24,015 nucleotides of DNA from a virus (taxonomy: Duplodnaviria; Caudoviricetes): positions 1 through 24,015 of the IMG/VR virus record IMGVR_UViG_3300025759_000679. One strand, given 5' to 3'. Every line of letters begins with the position of its first letter. The first letter of the stretch is position 1. Below, piece by piece: positions 9,698 through 23,452 of the stretch. Made by a program: the position numbers and the translations under genes. The notes under the pieces are model-generated. The model was not told where the DNA came from. It did not search any database and was given only the letters and a program-made list of their open reading frames with translations.

Positions 9698-11446
9698 ATG
9701 GCAACAAGAAGAACATTACAAAGACAATTTTTTAGTCCAAGCTATGACCCAAGTGCTTCCGCTGAAGCAGGAATGTTTGAACAGCAGGCAAGTGGCATGA
9801 GTCAGCTTGCTAGTAGTCTTAATCAAATGTCAAACTTTTTCTATAAGGAGATGGAGACAAGAGCAGTAGAGGAAGGCGAAATGTATGGAGCTGCTAATCC
9901 AATCACCCTTGAACAATTAGCTAATGCCAGGAAAACAGGAGAAGATGTTTTAAAGAATTATGGATACGGAGCAAAAGGTAGAGCAGCTAGAAGTGCTGCA
10001 TTAGAAGGTCTGATCTTAGATGTTGAGACCACTGCCTTGCAACAATTTACTGATATAGATGTAAAATCAAAACAAGATAAAGTATCTATTGAGGAATATG
10101 CAGATAGGCTTGACTCGGCTGTCAATGGTTATACTGACATGATAAAAAAGTTTCCAGAAGTTCAGACAAAGGTAAAGGCTAGTCTAAGTGTTACTGCTAA
10201 TGGATATTTAAAAAATTACGCAACAGATGTAGCAAAGATACAAGAGCAAAATGATAAACGATTGTATACAGAGGCTGTGTTTACTAGGTATGAAAAATTA
10301 GGAGCTGATATATCTGCTGTACTTGATTCTGGTGGTAGCCTAGCTGATTTATATAATAAAACAAGACGAGATATATCTGATGCAGCTTACGTCACTAATA
10401 TATCACCTTCTGTATTTAAAAAAGATTTAGATACTAGTAGAGAAAAATTTACTGATTATTTATTTAAAGCAGGATTTGATGAGGCATTTAGAAACGATAA
10501 AGCAAGTGACGATGCCCTAGCCTTACTTAGTAATAATAAAACTGACAATGAAAGAATAAATAAGATATACAATTTTTTACAGGCAGACGAGAAAGAACAA
10601 TTTATAAAACATTTAATAGATCAAGAAGAACTAAATATAAAAGCCCAAGATGATGAGATTAAATTATATAATAAACAAAATGATCGAATAGAAAAAGATT
10701 TTAATACTGCAATAATACAAGAAAATTACGATGTTGCAGAACAACTACTATCTCAATTACCTATAGATAAACAAAACACCTTGCAAACAATCTTAGCAAA
10801 ACGAGGTCCAGATATACATCCACTTATTTTAAATGAAGAACAAAGAGTAAAGTCTGACGACTTATTTTTAAAAGCTACACGAGGATCACTGACATCAAAA
10901 GAACTTCTAGATAATAGAGAAAACATTCTTTACGCAGACTACCAAACCCTAGCAAAAGAAATTGCTAGAAACGAAGACACTGAATTTAAGAACAAAACAA
11001 AATATTTTGAACAATCTTATAAAATTAATTTAGATACAAGAGGACTCACAGAGATAGAAAAAAATGACAGAGAGTTAGCCAATGAATTGTTAAGAGGTTT
11101 GTATGATGATTATCTCAAAGCCAAAGGTCGAGGTGAAGACTTTGATATAAGTGCTGAGATAAGAAAAAGAGAAAAGTTACAAATTATTGAGTTTAGAGAT
11201 AAAGCAAACCAAAACTTATTAGGACAAAAAGATAGGTATCTTAAAGAAATATCTTTCATGAAATATGGTGGAGAGAGGGAAAATCCAAAAAAAATGTTGT
11301 CATTACAGGATGCTTTACAATATATTGAATTCATTACTCAACAAGGGTTGTCAACAGCAGCAGAAAGGAATAAAAACATTGTACCTGATACTGTTACTAA
11401 TATAGAAAAAAAATTAAAAAAAATACAAGAAATAGAGAATAAATAA
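9698..11446 (+). CDS. Internal virion (ejection) protein, gp15-like
   Basis: 582 aa, predicted helical and charged. Second gene of the ejection cluster; call rests mainly on synteny. Confidence 0.62.
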   Translation: MATRRTLQRQFFSPSYDPSASAEAGMFEQQASGMSQLASSLNQMSNFFYKEMETRAVEEGEMYGAANPITLEQLANARKTGEDVLKNYGYGAKGRAARSAALEGLILDVETTALQQFTDIDVKSKQDKVSIEEYADRLDSAVNGYTDMIKKFPEVQTKVKASLSVTANGYLKNYATDVAKIQEQNDKRLYTEAVFTRYEKLGADISAVLDSGGSLADLYNKTRRDISDAAYVTNISPSVFKKDLDTSREKFTDYLFKAGFDEAFRNDKASDDALALLSNNKTDNERINKIYNFLQADEKEQFIKHLIDQEELNIKAQDDEIKLYNKQNDRIEKDFNTAIIQENYDVAEQLLSQLPIDKQNTLQTILAKRGPDIHPLILNEEQRVKSDDLFLKATRGSLTSKELLDNRENILYADYQTLAKEIARNEDTEFKNKTKYFEQSYKINLDTRGLTEIEKNDRELANELLRGLYDDYLKAKGRGEDFDISAEIRKREKLQIIEFRDKANQNLLGQKDRYLKEISFMKYGGERENPKKMLSLQDALQYIEFITQQGLSTAAERNKNIVPDTVTNIEKKLKKIQEIENK

Positions 11447-11448
11447 TT

Positions 11449-13311
11449 ATGGATGTGTTTGAAGAAATATTTAAAAGACAAGAGTTTGAAAACAATGGTA
11501 TAGAGTATGACCTTGAATTAAAGGATGGTGTATTCCAGGCTATTGTAAAAGACCCAGACCCCTCGTTTCTTGAAAGCATAGGAGAAGGTCTAGAAAGAGT
11601 AGCAGGTACTACTGCAAGTATCGGAGCAGGAGCTGTAGGTGCTACGTTAGGTTTCCCTACTGATCTAGCTAGTTTATTTGCAAGTATAGGCAAGTCTGTC
11701 GGTGCAGAAGATGGTAAGAAACTAGAAACATTTGCGAATACATTTGAGACATTATCTAGAGAAAATTATGGATCACAGTTTTATAAAGGAATGTTTGATA
11801 GTTTTGTTGATGATCTAAGTGTATCAGATCAAAAGAAAGAAGATTTTAAATCTGGCTTTGTAGCAGGGGAGTTTTTAGGTGTAGGTAATGTAGGCAAAGA
11901 AGCTGCCAAGCAAGCTCCTACAGTTGCCAAAAGTATTAAAGAAACATCAGAACAAGTGGGAGAAGCGGCACAAAAAAGAGTAGATGAGAATCAAGGTTCG
12001 ATGACTATGTCTAGTATGGGTGTAGGTGAAATGGGTAAGATGGTTGATAAAGGGTTGTCCAAACTAGCTCCTACAGATTTAAGAATTTCTGGAAGATTTC
12101 CTACAGCAGTAAAACCAGAAGCTGACCCTATAGAAAACAAACTTGATATTGGTCTAAATGAAGTAAAATCAAATAAAAAAATATTTGAGAATAATATAAA
12201 TCTCATCAAAGATTACCCAAATTTAAAAAAAGATGAAATACAAAAGTCTGCTGATGAAGTTTCAGAAACTTACATTAATCACCTTAAAGATAACTTACTT
12301 TGGCTTTATGATAAAGTTCCAGAGCAAACAAGACAAAGATCGAAATTATGGTATGACGGAGCAAACAAAGTTACAAAAAATTGGGCAAAAGAATTTGATA
12401 CGAATGAACAATCAGTTGCAGCTGTTATTGCAGCTTTATCGCCTCAAAAGGATTGGTATATGAATGCTAGTCTGGCATATAGAGTATTAGATATAATGAA
12501 AAATAAGAAAGATATTATGTTTGACAATACTATGAAGGCGAAAGCAAAAACCATAATACCACAGAGATATAGTAAACAATTAACAAATATACTAAATAAA
12601 AAATTATCAGACCTAGACTCTACATTAGAAAAATCTATTTGGTTAAGAATTTATGATGAAACATACAATGATAGATCGTTTAAAACATTAACTCCAGAAG
12701 GAGACTTCGCTGATTTTGTAAAAACTGATAAAGGTGAAAATGCTAAAACAGCATGGAATAGTTTAAACATGATTTCAAAAGCTATTGATGCATATGAAAG
12801 CGGTGGAGATGTTAAGGTTATATCTAAATTAATGGGCAATAAACACAAGGTTAGAAATTTCTATAATAATATAATCGATCCTAACTCTTCCGCAGGTGAT
12901 GTTACTATTGACACTCATGCAGTTGCTGCTGCTACATTAAGACCATTATCTGGAAATAGTACACCTGTACACCACAATTTTGGAACATCACCAGAAATAA
13001 AGAAGAAGCCTAAAGATTTTACAGGAGCTATGAAAAATTCTGCAATCACAGGAGTACAAGGAAGTTATGGTATTTATGTTGATGCATATAGAAAAGCTGC
13101 AAAAGAAAGAGGAGTTTTACCACGAGAAATGCAATCAATTACATGGGAGGCTGTAAGAGGATTGTTTCCATCTACATATAAGCAAAAGCAAAACATTGAG
13201 GATATAGACAATTTGTGGTATCAATATAGAAATAACAAACTTAACTTAGATGAGGTGAGAAATGAGATTGAGCGAAAAGCAGGAGGAATCAATCCCCCAG
13301 AATGGGAATGA
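11449..13311 (+). CDS. Internal-virion-type protein with C-terminal HhH-GPD/EndoIII-like DNA glycosylase-like domain
   Basis: N-terminal ~200 aa has a Gly/Ala hydrophobic segment (GTTASIGAGAVGATLGFP). C-terminal part has LWYD.A, AAVIAALSPQKDW, GNKHKVRNFY, VTIDTHA and YR.AA...G..P.EMQSITW. Confidence 0.6.
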   Translation: MDVFEEIFKRQEFENNGIEYDLELKDGVFQAIVKDPDPSFLESIGEGLERVAGTTASIGAGAVGATLGFPTDLASLFASIGKSVGAEDGKKLETFANTFETLSRENYGSQFYKGMFDSFVDDLSVSDQKKEDFKSGFVAGEFLGVGNVGKEAAKQAPTVAKSIKETSEQVGEAAQKRVDENQGSMTMSSMGVGEMGKMVDKGLSKLAPTDLRISGRFPTAVKPEADPIENKLDIGLNEVKSNKKIFENNINLIKDYPNLKKDEIQKSADEVSETYINHLKDNLLWLYDKVPEQTRQRSKLWYDGANKVTKNWAKEFDTNEQSVAAVIAALSPQKDWYMNASLAYRVLDIMKNKKDIMFDNTMKAKAKTIIPQRYSKQLTNILNKKLSDLDSTLEKSIWLRIYDETYNDRSFKTLTPEGDFADFVKTDKGENAKTAWNSLNMISKAIDAYESGGDVKVISKLMGNKHKVRNFYNNIIDPNSSAGDVTIDTHAVAAATLRPLSGNSTPVHHNFGTSPEIKKKPKDFTGAMKNSAITGVQGSYGIYVDAYRKAAKERGVLPREMQSITWEAVRGLFPSTYKQKQNIEDIDNLWYQYRNNKLNLDEVRNEIERKAGGINPPEWE

Positions 13312-13456
13312 TAATGATGCAAAAAAACTTATGAAAAAGTTAAATTTAGCTTATACAAGAGAAAATTATTTAGACCTAATGTATCTAGGAGATGTGCCAG
13401 AAAAATTATCAGCAGAAGAAGAGTTAGAATTGCCATTAGAATTTCAAAAAAAATAG
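13262..13456 (+). CDS. Small protein with acidic C-terminus, candidate immunity/inhibitor of the upstream domain
   Basis: Overlaps the upstream gene end by 50 nt. GAGGTG at 13252-13257 before ATG 13262 (alternative start 13331). Core is LMKKLNLAYTRENYLDLMYLGDVPEKLSAEEELELP. Confidence 0.6.
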   Translation: MRLSEKQEESIPQNGNDNDAKKLMKKLNLAYTRENYLDLMYLGDVPEKLSAEEELELPLEFQKK

Positions 13457-13463
13457 GTAAGTA

Positions 13464-16304
13464 ATGTTTAAAAAATTTATAAAATTTACTGAAGAGGCTG
13501 AGAAAAAAGTATATGGAAAAGATATTCCAGATGATAAAGATATTGTTCAGCAAGAAGGTAAAATAATAATTAAAAGAACTTCTGAAGCAGAAGCTGCCGA
13601 AATGTCAGAGGCATTTAACAAAGTATTTAAAAATTCTACTACTATTGATGGAAGAGAAGTATTAGAAAATCTTGACGCAATGGAAATACCAACCACTTTT
13701 ACAGGTGATTATTTAAATATAATAAAACAAAAAAATAAAAAACTATTTGATTATTTAAAAAGAGGTAAGGTTACTACAGCAGACATGATTCGGTATGCTG
13801 AGCAATTAGGAGAAAGACAAATTATTAGAAAGCTCATTAAACTTGAGCCAGGAGAATTAGTAAAAGCAGATGATATTTTTGCAGGTATGTTAGTGGTGCA
13901 TAAGAATCTAAGAAAAATTGAAAAGAATTACAAAAAAATAGATAGTCTTAGTGACACAGATGTAGAAGTAAAAAAATTAAATGAAGAGATTGGTTTCCTA
14001 TCATCTATAAACAAAAACATAGGACTAAATATTAAAGCTGTTAGATCAGAATTTGGTCGAGGCTTGAGAGACCCTTTAGGTGGTAATGTAATAGAACGTG
14101 TTGTATTTCAAGAGACTCCGTCTAAAGGTGCAAGTATTCCTGTAATAAAAAGAGCGGCTAAATCATACCTTGCGTTACCTGCAAATAATAGAAGTAACTT
14201 TTTAGCAAAAGATGGATGGCTTGCAAAAACAAATAGAGTTGTACAAGAGATATATATAAATGCTCTTCTATCATCTCCTGTTACACACATGGTAAATATA
14301 GCAGGTAATGCTGCGTTTCAATTCAAATCTCTTTTTGATACAGGAATAGCAGGAACAGTAGGTTCTATTCGAGTTGGAGCTAAAAAATTATTAGGTCAAG
14401 AATTTGATGAATATGATCGAGTTATGGTAGGAGAAGCTGCTGCCGAATTATTTGGTGGTCTGATGTCACAAGGAAATGCTCTAGCTTTGATGAGTAAAAC
14501 TTTTATTAAAGGAGAAGCCCCAGACTTGTTAACAAAAACAGAATTAGAAGAAATGAGAGCAATAGGTAAAGAAAGAAGTGTTGGAGGTATAATTAAACAA
14601 TTTAAAGAGGGAGATCATGTAGGCTCTTTCTTGAGTGCTATTGGTTCTGCTAACAGTATACCTGGGCGATTACTAGCGACAGGCGATGAATATTTTAAAG
14701 TAACTTCTAGAGGAAGGTACATATACAAAGAGGCTTATAAAGAAGCTATGACCAACTATCAAATTACAAGAAATGCTGACAATGGATCAGCAGAAGAAGC
14801 TATGAAATCTTTTAAAGAAACGTTAATTGATAGAATAGAAAATCCAACTGAAGCCACAATAGAAGGCTCAAAACAATTTGCAAAAAAAATGACTTTTCAA
14901 CAAGAGTTAGGAAATAGTTTGCCAGAGAAAGGTGTAAAGGCTTTGATGGAAATTAGTCCTTTAATGAGGTATCTAATACCATTTGTTAGAACACCTACCA
15001 ACATAATTAAAGAGGCACTAGGCTCAACCTTAAATGCAGTAAACCCAAAATTTTATCAACAACTCAGAAATGCTTCTGGCAGAGAGTTCGATCAGTTAGT
15101 AGGTAAACTTGTGGTCGGTAATGGTATAGCTGCTACTATGGTTGGTTATTCATTAGGATTAATGGGAGATGACATCAAAATTACAGGAGCAGGACCTTCA
15201 GCTAAAGGAGCAAAAAAATATTGGGATGCAGCTGGTATACCTCAGTATAGTATTGGTATAAAACAAGAAGATGGAACGTATGAGTGGACAAGCTATTCTC
15301 GTTTTGATCCTATATCTGGTATTCTAGCTATGTCTGCTGATACTGCGTACTACATACAAAACGAAGATAATCCAGATGCAATACAAGGAATCATGAATGC
15401 ACTTACTGTAAGTATCACTAACTACGCAGGTCAACTTCCTTTTTTACAAGGAGTTTCTGATTTAACAAGAATGTTTGGTGACATACAATCCGACCCTATG
15501 AGAAGTAAAGATGCGTTACTAAAATTTTTAGGTCAAAAAACAGGTAATGTTGTAACTTCGCTTGGTAGGGTGGCAGGACCTGCGTCTGGTGTATTCCAAG
15601 ATTATCTTGCAGAATATTCTGGTTTACCAATTCCTCCGAGTAGTTCTTCATATACAGCTACACTTGAGAGAGTTCAAGACCCTACATTAAATGAAGTTTA
15701 TAAATTAGAAGACTTAGAAGTACAAAGACAATTACCTTCTTTTATGCGAGGGTTTTATATTGCATTGCAACAAGCTAAGTCTCGTAACCCAAGATTTAGT
15801 AAAGACCTATTACCTAAACTTAATTTTTGGGGAGAAGAACTTAAACAAACAGAAGGCAGATGGGATGAATATTTTAATCCATTTAAAAGAACAACGAGTA
15901 GAGGTGAAAGTCCGTTAGAAAAAGAGCTTATTAATTTAGCTAATAAAACAGGTAATGCTTTTGCAAATCATCCAAGAGCTTTTCTTGCAGGAAAACAACG
16001 AGTAGAACTATCAGCTCCGCTATACAATACCTATGTTAAAAATATAAATACTATTGATGATAGAGGTAGATTGCCAGATGATCCTGGATATAACTTTGAG
16101 TCTTCGTTAGTAAGAAAGTTGGAAAGTATTGTAAGAGGTGATGGAAGAATAGGACGAACATACCAAGAAACAAGAGACCCAGGAGATAGATATAGTATTC
16201 TCAATGCTGTTCTGACAAGTAAAAGAAAACAGGCAAGAGATAAATTGTACGAAGGCACAGACCTTGAGACACAAAAATTGAACTTTTATTTAGGCAGAGA
16301 ATAG
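13464..16304 (+). CDS. Large internal virion (ejection) protein, gp16-like
   Basis: 946 aa with INALLSSP.TH.VN..GN, RLL..GDEYFK, TFQ.EL, PFVRTPTNI and SYSRFDP motifs, recalled from large ejection proteins of marine podoviruses. Precedes the tail fibre. Confidence 0.8.
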   Translation: MFKKFIKFTEEAEKKVYGKDIPDDKDIVQQEGKIIIKRTSEAEAAEMSEAFNKVFKNSTTIDGREVLENLDAMEIPTTFTGDYLNIIKQKNKKLFDYLKRGKVTTADMIRYAEQLGERQIIRKLIKLEPGELVKADDIFAGMLVVHKNLRKIEKNYKKIDSLSDTDVEVKKLNEEIGFLSSINKNIGLNIKAVRSEFGRGLRDPLGGNVIERVVFQETPSKGASIPVIKRAAKSYLALPANNRSNFLAKDGWLAKTNRVVQEIYINALLSSPVTHMVNIAGNAAFQFKSLFDTGIAGTVGSIRVGAKKLLGQEFDEYDRVMVGEAAAELFGGLMSQGNALALMSKTFIKGEAPDLLTKTELEEMRAIGKERSVGGIIKQFKEGDHVGSFLSAIGSANSIPGRLLATGDEYFKVTSRGRYIYKEAYKEAMTNYQITRNADNGSAEEAMKSFKETLIDRIENPTEATIEGSKQFAKKMTFQQELGNSLPEKGVKALMEISPLMRYLIPFVRTPTNIIKEALGSTLNAVNPKFYQQLRNASGREFDQLVGKLVVGNGIAATMVGYSLGLMGDDIKITGAGPSAKGAKKYWDAAGIPQYSIGIKQEDGTYEWTSYSRFDPISGILAMSADTAYYIQNEDNPDAIQGIMNALTVSITNYAGQLPFLQGVSDLTRMFGDIQSDPMRSKDALLKFLGQKTGNVVTSLGRVAGPASGVFQDYLAEYSGLPIPPSSSSYTATLERVQDPTLNEVYKLEDLEVQRQLPSFMRGFYIALQQAKSRNPRFSKDLLPKLNFWGEELKQTEGRWDEYFNPFKRTTSRGESPLEKELINLANKTGNAFANHPRAFLAGKQRVELSAPLYNTYVKNINTIDDRGRLPDDPGYNFESSLVRKLESIVRGDGRIGRTYQETRDPGDRYSILNAVLTSKRKQARDKLYEGTDLETQKLNFYLGRE

Positions 16305-22583: not shown

Positions 22584-23036
22584 ATGCAGTTATCCAAACA
22601 TTTCAAGCTAGAAGAATTTACGAAAAGCCAAACCGCTGCTCGTAAGGGAATAGACAATACTCCTCCAGAGGATATCATTCCTAAACTTTCTTTTCTTTGC
22701 ACTCAGATACTCGAACCCCTCCGAGAGAAAGTGGACTCCCCAATAATCATTACTAGCGGTTGGAGAACACCGGAGCTGTCTCTGGCTATTGGATCAAGTC
22801 AGATGTCTCAGCATTGCAAGGGCGAAGCTGTGGATATTGAATGCCTTTCATTGAGTACACTGAGTCTAGCGGAGATGATAATCAATCACTTTCCTTTCGA
22901 TCAATGTATCCTGGAGTGTTATAAGAAGGGTGATATGAATAGTGGTTGGGTTCATGTAAGTCTGACCTCTGGTGAGAACCGAGGGGAAGTATTAACATTC
23001 GATGGTAAGCAATATCATAAGGGTCTGCTAGTGTAA
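22584..23036 (+). CDS. Endolysin, peptidase M15A family (Zn D-Ala-D-Ala peptidase fold)
   Basis: MQLSKHFKLEEF, ILEPLR, ITSGWR, SQHCKGEAVD and WVHVS motifs. Start reassigned to ATG 22584, just after the holin stop. Confidence 0.9.
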   Translation: MQLSKHFKLEEFTKSQTAARKGIDNTPPEDIIPKLSFLCTQILEPLREKVDSPIIITSGWRTPELSLAIGSSQMSQHCKGEAVDIECLSLSTLSLAEMIINHFPFDQCILECYKKGDMNSGWVHVSLTSGENRGEVLTFDGKQYHKGLLV

Positions 23037-23452
23037 TGTCTGAAGTATCTACAGGGCGAATCGGTGAACTGATCGCAGCTCTTAGACTAACTCAGATGGG
23101 TATCGAGAATACTATCAGTCCACTCAACGGATCAGATATCATTGCGACCACCAAAGGTAAATTATATAGAGTGCAAGTCAAAGCGCGGAGTGTTCCAGAT
23201 AGTTCCAGACCTACACATTTTATGTGGACTACGAGTTACTCAAGTAAGAAGAAAGTTCCGTACACCAGAGAGCATTGCGATATAATAGCACTCGTATCTA
23301 TTCCTCATGAGAACGTATACTTTATACCTGTAATACATCAGACAAGTGTTACTAGACGATTAAAGGTAGAAATATTTGAGGATAAAAGTATAGCCTCCTC
23401 CACATGGGAAAAGGCTATAAGTGAGTTAGATAACTCGGATGGATCGAGCTAG
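23036..23452 (+). CDS. PD-(D/E)XK family endonuclease
   Basis: G.IGEL.A...L, DII......YRVQVK and Y....CD.IALV motifs. TAATG coupling to the endolysin. Confidence 0.78.
   Translation: MSEVSTGRIGELIAALRLTQMGIENTISPLNGSDIIATTKGKLYRVQVKARSVPDSSRPTHFMWTTSYSSKKKVPYTREHCDIIALVSIPHENVYFIPVIHQTSVTRRLKVEIFEDKSIASSTWEKAISELDNSDGSS

Follow-up and report, generated by a model that had tools for sequence, protein, structure and literature searches.

What does a large gene do among the ejection-protein genes of a podophage, and why does a short open reading frame (ORF) overlap its 3' end? Both genes lie in a 24,015-nt stretch of linear DNA, hereafter the window (positions 1 to 24,015 of IMG/VR record IMGVR_UViG_3300025759_000679, Caudoviricetes, 75% complete). 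An initial annotation of this stretch read the pair as an injected DNA glycosylase and its cognate immunity gene, and the arrangement it described is present: a 620-aa ORF at 11449..13311 and a small ORF at 13262..13456, both on the plus strand, the second in the +1 frame with a 50-nt overlap. We find that the large protein is modular, with a constant carrier and a cargo that is exchanged between relatives, that residues of its predicted active site are invariant, and that enzyme and partner genes are tightly linked. The explanation we favor, to which we give an even chance, is an injected, guanine-type helix-hairpin-helix (HhH)-fold glycosylase and apurinic/apyrimidinic (AP) lyase borne on a constant carrier and encoded together with the gene for its cognate acidic inhibitor.

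The window encodes a podophage structural block of connector, capsid, tail tubes, internal virion protein, tail fibers and lysis genes (Pfam, PHROG). The 620-aa gene lies between the tail-tube genes and the tail fiber, beside the internal virion protein, as do ejection proteins of the T7 type. Of the gp15-like and gp16-like neighbors named in the initial annotation, the downstream one is well founded (a 946-aa internal virion protein, 13464..16304, plus strand; phrog_6651, E 3.6e-18). The upstream 582-aa gene (9698..11446, plus strand) is syntenic in relatives and gp15-like by position alone, its product having no Pfam or PHROG match. The 620-aa gene had also been taken for an extra insertion, which the relatives contradict: a large gene fills this slot in all 14 of the loci found through tail genes that have both a gp15-like gene and following DNA (19 examined, L296-L314). 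The gene is not extra, and the slot is fixed. The window phage is a marine phage, and the closest cultured capsid is that of the OM43 phage MEP301 (58.5% identity). In that phage a 161-aa gene without cargo occupies the slot (L317 17157-20744), and the annotation splits the gp16-like gene into two ORFs (gp24, gp23). We considered whether MEP301 gp25 is homologous to the carrier and could not establish it (E 0.019).

The carrier comprises residues 1-208 (11449..12072, plus strand) and ends in the junction KGLSKLAP (12049-12072), the point of cargo exchange in the window protein and in P0243-P0335; the cargo follows at 12073..13311. Residues 1-200 match 95 proteins at up to 99% identity, and these together with the window protein (96 sequences) carry eight C-terminal clusters downstream of KGLSKLAP, so that the same N-terminus stands on proteins with unrelated C-termini. 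In the commonest cargo (51/96; P0244 cluster, L297-L299, L301, L303, L311) there is an EIQSDW motif; no family match was informative, and this cargo is presumably nuclease-like. Another 25 carry a second type of DUF7178 domain (Pfam match; probability 95 to the profile of the window domain), two are of the window type and three are other singletons. The remaining 14 + 1 (the P0268 cluster, L309, L310, L312 and L313, and P0315) are glycosylase-like by motif only, with the order SP, K, D-x-W or D-x-H, Q-x3-W and with GVGQK in P0315; profile comparisons of both kinds were not significant. Carriers that are 98-99% identical bear three different cargo types, and exchange is therefore recent. A constant carrier with interchangeable C-terminal domains, one hallmark of polymorphic toxins, is thus found here.

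The cargo is not tied to this carrier. Window-type domains also stand behind other N-termini (P0004, P0005) and within polyvalent proteins of 1,000-4,500 aa that contain LPD38, LPD22, ART-PolyVal or GNAT domains (24 host proteins scanned, in none of which an LPD model covers the DUF7178 domain). This several-domain layout is seen in relatives; the window protein has two modules only. Genes sampled beside the relatives include those for terminase, portal, capsid and tail and for internal virion proteins. In Roseobacter phage CRP-738, for instance, the gene for gp40 (L133 7777-10284) lies between the portal and capsid genes; it has no partner, and in its product a methyltransferase-like segment (by eye) precedes the domain. 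The initial annotation had placed the effector on an ejectosome carrier rather than on MuF. The window protein lies in the ejection slot and has no MuF match in Pfam or PHROG; its domain is nevertheless also seen in polyvalent proteins and next to terminase or portal genes, so the carrier is not exclusively an ejectosome gene. These gene contexts suggest delivery in the virion.

From residue 272 onward the cargo belongs to DUF7178 (Pfam PF23802; PHROG 3842; 96.8 bits against a cut-off of 27). Its relatives include 1,468 proteins comparable in length; at E <= 0.001 there are 6,651 representatives, and at E <= 1e-30 there are 1,864 clusters (50% identity). Compared with the ~200-aa stand-alone form of Streptomyces phages, the window domain is long: it has ~90 inserted residues and is extended at its C-terminus. 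Profiles of the long and short forms match with a probability of 99.5. The predicted model of residues 240-620 has a predicted local distance difference test score of 95.1 and a predicted template-modeling score of 0.91. Compared with 48,161 solved chains in VIA, its top 22 rows are all HhH-fold proteins, and the next row has Z 3.9. The best match is Thermotoga Ogg2 (3n0u; Z 9.6, root-mean-square deviation 3.6, 184 residues aligned), followed by two entries of the queuine salvage enzyme Qng1 (Z 7.9 and 7.8), with AGOG at Z 7.7, OGG1 at Z 6.7, and EndoIII, Mag1, ROS1, MutY and AlkA also among the top rows. The phage protein PUGT gp46 is listed at Z 3.8. The match carries weight because a single superfamily fills the top of the list. 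By the VIA comparison the model thus has the two-domain helical fold of HhH glycosylases, which Foldseek did not confirm. Endonuclease III had been offered as the template; an HhH-glycosylase-like fold is supported, and the closest branch is instead Ogg2/AGOG.

Identity of the domain to Ogg2/AGOG is ~10%. The motifs read out in the initial annotation, S331-P332-Q333, K467, D488 and EMQSITW, are all where it had placed them, with the Lys-Asp spacing of 21, and the conservation on which it staked its case is borne out. In an alignment of 116 sequences S331-P-Q, K467, D488, H490, Q562 and W566 are invariant, as is P478; the SPQ, K467, D488 and EMQSITW motifs are likewise invariant in 38/38 aligned sequences; and SPQ, K467, D488-x-H and Q562-x3-W566 are kept in 150/150 best representatives. 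Some loci were retrieved with patterns that contained K and D, and the sets from protein searches are the fairer test of conservation because of this. Motif conservation in these sets exceeds chance.

Each of these residues can be given a tentative role (all on the plus strand). The SPQ turn (12439..12447) is a predicted DNA wedge, a role that we take over from the EndoIII LSAQ and OGG1 loops. K467 (12847..12849), the predicted catalytic lysine, aligns with K113 in the short form and stands at the head of model helix 227-237; where this family has Lys, the Ogg2 entry 3knt carries Gln, which we count in favor of the assignment. D488-T-H490 (12910..12918) follows a Gly/Pro-rich loop and aligns through the short form with the D-x-H of Ogg2, as is expected of the catalytic aspartate of HhH-GPD enzymes. 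Q562-x3-W566 (13132..13146), aligned with the D-x3-W of Ogg2, is a predicted pair for base recognition and stacking, which we presume to resemble the guanine-edge pair Q315/F319 of OGG1. Taken with the closest folds and with the antiphage glycosylase Dag1 (see below), this resemblance suggests by analogy a guanine-type substrate. The same catalytic set occurs in gp73 of the Streptomyces phage Janus (L136 3003-3620), a 205-aa stand-alone DUF7178 protein with 587 relatives.

The small ORF is a separate gene that is selected in its own frame. We surveyed 116 distinct domain sequences from 133 loci with partner profiles seeded from those loci, and found the partner in 108, with six lacking it and two cut off at the sequence end. 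It is wholly nested in the +1 frame of the host ORF in 71 (in 33 of which >150 host residues still follow), overlaps that ORF in part in 30, like the window gene, and is free-standing in other frames in seven; nested copies occur even inside polyvalent proteins of 2,000-4,500 aa. The reverse search, from the partner motif, placed the enzyme directly upstream in 73 of 75 loci, the others being one truncated locus and L183, and no orphan partner gene was seen among the 75 (an exact pattern, which reaches close relatives only). In L183 and L231 enzyme and partner stand tail to tail on opposite strands. The open +1 frame contains an ATG in 99 of the 101 overlapping loci (57.6 expected under synonymous recoding), and in 85 a start is paired with a Shine-Dalgarno match (30.4 expected); the 101 loci are related by descent, and the counts are not independent events. 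Where the partner is nested and the host frame continues, differences at the three +1-frame codon positions are 0.395, 0.261 and 0.557, close to the 0.361, 0.243 and 0.606 of a control in which the main frame is closed (46 pairs of 45-97% identity, aligned in the +1 frame, which favors that frame). The main frame across the nested region is 22% glycine.

In the window, the partner most likely starts at ATG 13262, behind the Shine-Dalgarno-like GAGGTGA (13252..13258, plus strand) within the enzyme gene, and encodes 64 aa. The alternative of 41 aa, from Met 13331, is rejected, as the conserved core begins upstream of it. Partner cores are acidic (mean charge -4.9, negative in 94% of the 108; net -4 in the window) and belong to no Pfam, PHROG or Atlas family. 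The basic charge of the enzyme domain (net +7) is opposite in sign. The small cognate gene linked to the effector that marks polymorphic toxins is found. Nested copies turn up in Jannaschia, in Pseudofulvimonas and in three isolates of Bradyrhizobium, each time in a prophage-like locus; in phage LS06-2018-MD07 the match to a nested partner is weak (E 3e-4). A second, diverged and unrelated-looking type of nested +1 gene is confined to one enzyme clade of giant proteins (L040-L053, L236, L242). In L008 the partner has become free-standing: 146 residues that resemble an ADP-ribosyltransferase by eye (2400-2840; YHGT and SLT, without a Pfam match) are inserted between it and the domain. Finally, a hairpin formed by conserved GGINPP codons lies just 3' of the window partner's start codon (13280-13299), with a terminator-like score on the minus strand; such sites number four (three of them this GGINPP-codon hairpin) against 0.3 expected. 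Promoter-like sites were no more frequent than chance predicts (4 against 4.0).

Under the injected-weapon explanation, the carrier-cargo protein would be made late with the other ejection proteins and would probably be packaged in the virion. After ejection with the genome, a guanine-type base would be flipped out and excised in the Q562/W566 pocket, and the strand nicked through a Schiff base at K467 with the help of D488; the target would be host DNA or that of rival elements, early in infection. Such a substrate would presumably occur in the phage's own DNA too, and the partner would be needed because of this. In the cell that makes the phage, the shared mRNA would also yield the partner, which may occlude the enzyme's basic DNA-binding cleft during replication and packaging of progeny DNA. 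With the partner gene nested in the +1 frame, enzyme and inhibitor would form a single portable module that fits even in the middle of a giant polyprotein.

Several observations weigh against this explanation, some of them on the side of the enzyme. A Foldseek search with the model returned nothing at E <= 0.001 (Pa-AGOG at E 0.66), so that of the two structural checks on residues 240-620 one speaks for the fold and the other does not, and Z 9.6 is below VIA's caution level for helical folds. PDB sequence searches with the domain and two profiles gave nothing significant, and Pfam assigns it neither to PF22175 (Ogg2) nor to PF00730. A chain of profiles does speak for the fold, from the long form to the short one (above) and from there to Ogg2 (28 proteins from archaea; probability 48.5, E 1.8e-4), D-x-H and Q/D-x3-W being aligned; the direct comparison of the long form with Ogg2 is not significant (E 0.46). 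The hairpin has a single conserved glycine, G463 at -4, against G127 and G129 in Ogg2, departing from the canonical G-h-G-x-K, and the profile alignment through the short form puts the lysine one residue off the Ogg2 register. The domain also lacks Ogg2's C-terminal Lys motif and has Gln instead of Asp at 562. Because of the degenerate hairpin, the non-significant direct profile and the lysine register, we classify it as DUF7178 with an HhH-glycosylase-like fold, a member of neither the canonical HhH-GPD enzymes nor Ogg2. Moreover, in Janus the stand-alone gene is located outside the structural block, toward the end of the genome and in the company of small genes.

The partner, too, supplies counterevidence, and the toxin-immunity layout claimed at the outset is accordingly supported in its constant carrier, variable cargo and linked small gene, and challenged by intact enzymes and sister cargoes that stand alone. 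In an independent sample of 49 loci from the genomes of bacteria and archaea, the partner profiles matched 27, missed 21 and met one cut-off end, although about nine of the 21 misses show a diverged +1 ORF by eye. Altogether, 27/198 distinct domains have no partner-profile match, and 18 of those have no visible partner either. These partnerless enzymes are scattered over the tree with an intact K467 motif, and include the cultured phages CRP-738 (gp40) and zth2-2; either some lineages can therefore do without the partner, or their enzyme has another substrate. Alignment columns that separate partner-bearing from partnerless enzymes are scattered and confounded by kinship. Sister cargoes in the slot, including the second DUF7178 type, have neither a free nor a nested partner (13 genes checked).

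Such losses are what one would expect if the injected enzyme excised a modified base only, be it an epigenetic mark of the host or, in rival phages, 7-deazaguanine or another hypermodified base, and were harmless to ordinary DNA, with the partner serving as a regulator, chaperone or packaging aid. We regard this as doubtful, though several points speak for it: the K, D and D/Q-x3-W quartet is that of Dag1, which cuts guanine-modified DNA only; the partner has been lost repeatedly while the motifs were retained; and a single slot is filled by turns with several glycosylase-like cargoes, which is what differing base specificities would predict. QueC is present in none of five near-complete carrier phages, so such an enzyme would spare them, and the same count therefore argues against 7-deazaguanine self-protection while leaving room for other marks. 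A self-sparing enzyme, however, has no obvious need of a partner kept in 108/116 relatives despite a constrained overlap, and that partner is acidic like the DNA-mimic inhibitors Ugi and p56. A role in repair, in which the enzyme clears 8-oxoguanine from the packaged genome after ejection and the partner keeps it inactive until then, is in our estimate improbable. Its nearest folds are indeed the 8-oxoguanine glycosylases Ogg2, AGOG and OGG1, and Q-x3-W matches what we take to be OGG1's guanine-edge pair, but the invariant C-terminal lysine of Ogg2 is missing along with any match to PF22175, and a domain that is swapped with unrelated cargoes on one carrier and keeps company with ADP-ribosyltransferase and GNAT domains sits in a context of conflict.

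The same fold could also serve other chemistry: it might hydrolyze a free nucleotide or signal, like Qng1, or attach a group to DNA, like phage PUGT. The second and third ranks of Qng1, the listing of PUGT gp46 and the degenerate hairpin make this worth stating; the alignment of Lys, D-x-H and Q/D-x3-W with the Ogg2 glycosylase/lyase set, the invariant SPQ turn and the basic domain make it improbable. That the small ORF is instead an alternative C-terminus reached by programmed +1 frameshifting seems to us barely credible, and we reject this model. It would account for a +1 frame at the domain end in 101/116 relatives and for the in-frame fusion P0093, the only one among 470 proteins and either a natural variant or an assembly error. 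Against it stand the partner's own ATG and Shine-Dalgarno sequence, far above the null, the free-standing copies in other frames (7/116, once behind an inserted domain), the opposite-strand loci L183 and L231, and the lack of any common slippery codon, and one fusion in 470 is itself too few. The injected glycosylase with a cognate inhibitor is the explanation we carry forward. Elsewhere in the window, a PD-(D/E)XK endonuclease gene lies downstream of the lysis genes (23036-23452) and a GNAT-like gene upstream of the connector (581-1087).

Should the explanation hold, its reach would be wide. It is possible, if somewhat short of an even chance, that these loci belong to a very large class of phage-injected base-excision weapons, in which virion carriers bear interchangeable HhH glycosylases that differ in base specificity, one lineage (>1,800 clusters) has its inhibitor gene nested in the +1 frame, and polyvalent proteins hide nested immunity genes that have gone unannotated. 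Glycosylases have recently been described as bacterial weapons against phages, and this reading would put them on the phage side as well, delivered with the genome. DUF7178, a family of 1,864 clusters for which we found no published function, gains a testable fold and active site. A conserved gene that lies wholly inside giant phage genes is of a kind that gene callers would miss, and it suggests a means by which the antidote stays with a harmful module that lies midway along a polyprotein. A base-excising enzyme with a natural off-switch could serve as a reagent, and the system is within reach of experiment: Janus gp73 offers a cultured system, prophages of cultured strains carry the nested form, and the two small genes could be tested in E. 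coli.

How does this system compare with those already known? Within DUF7178, SPQ, K, D-x-H and Q-x3-W are common to the window domain and the short stand-alone form of Streptomyces phages, whereas the long form of the window is fused to a virion carrier and linked to a partner gene. Among cellular enzymes, the closest folds (3n0u, 3knt, 1xqp) have K, D-x-H and D/Q-x3-W in the same order, but Ogg2/AGOG belong to housekeeping repair and the window domain to a setting of phage structural genes. Small acidic phage proteins that inhibit a glycosylase are familiar from Ugi (PBS2) and p56 (phi29), both directed at host uracil glycosylase. Those inhibitors block a host enzyme, while the window partner, which has no Pfam family, is linked to the phage's own HhH-fold enzyme.

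The nearest functional parallel is on the host side. The antiphage HhH glycosylase Dag1 uses K118, D132, D184 and W188, of which D184 and W188 are essential, and is bifunctional, cutting only guanine-modified DNA (bioRxiv 10.1101/2025.10.29.685425). Dag1 and Dag2 thus resemble the proposed role of DUF7178 in being HhH glycosylases used in conflict, a likeness that lies in the residue quartet, and differ in being host-side, stand-alone and carried in integrons, unlike the carrier-borne phage domain; the text consulted makes no mention of phage-encoded or prophage versions. DUF7178 was named in no paper found by our literature search, nor did we find a report of this system under ejected or phage-encoded HhH glycosylases, glycosylase polymorphic toxins or nested phage antitoxins, most subscription journals lying outside that search. 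The accessible text of the MEP301 paper (PMC8024684) does not mention mass spectrometry. We have thus not found this combination of effector chemistry and nested-gene layout described.

The layout itself has two precedents. As described in the available text on MuF polymorphic toxins, these have a constant virion-associated N-terminus, a variable C-terminal effector and a small downstream ORF, the last in 89.4% of toxin genes (Jamet 2017, PMC5576092), a text in which glycosylases are not mentioned. The window system has the same three parts, and some DUF7178 relatives adjoin portal or terminase genes; it differs in having no MuF domain, in occupying an ejection-gene slot and in a partner that is often fully nested in the +1 frame. 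Polyvalent proteins are the other precedent, since DUF7178 relatives share their layout of LPD38, LPD22, ART-PolyVal and GNAT domains (Iyer 2017, PMC5512222); the words "glycosylase" and "overlap" are absent from the main text of that paper, whose supplements may list the domain. By analogy with both, the module appears to work at once like a polymorphic toxin with its immunity gene and like an effector of a polyvalent protein.

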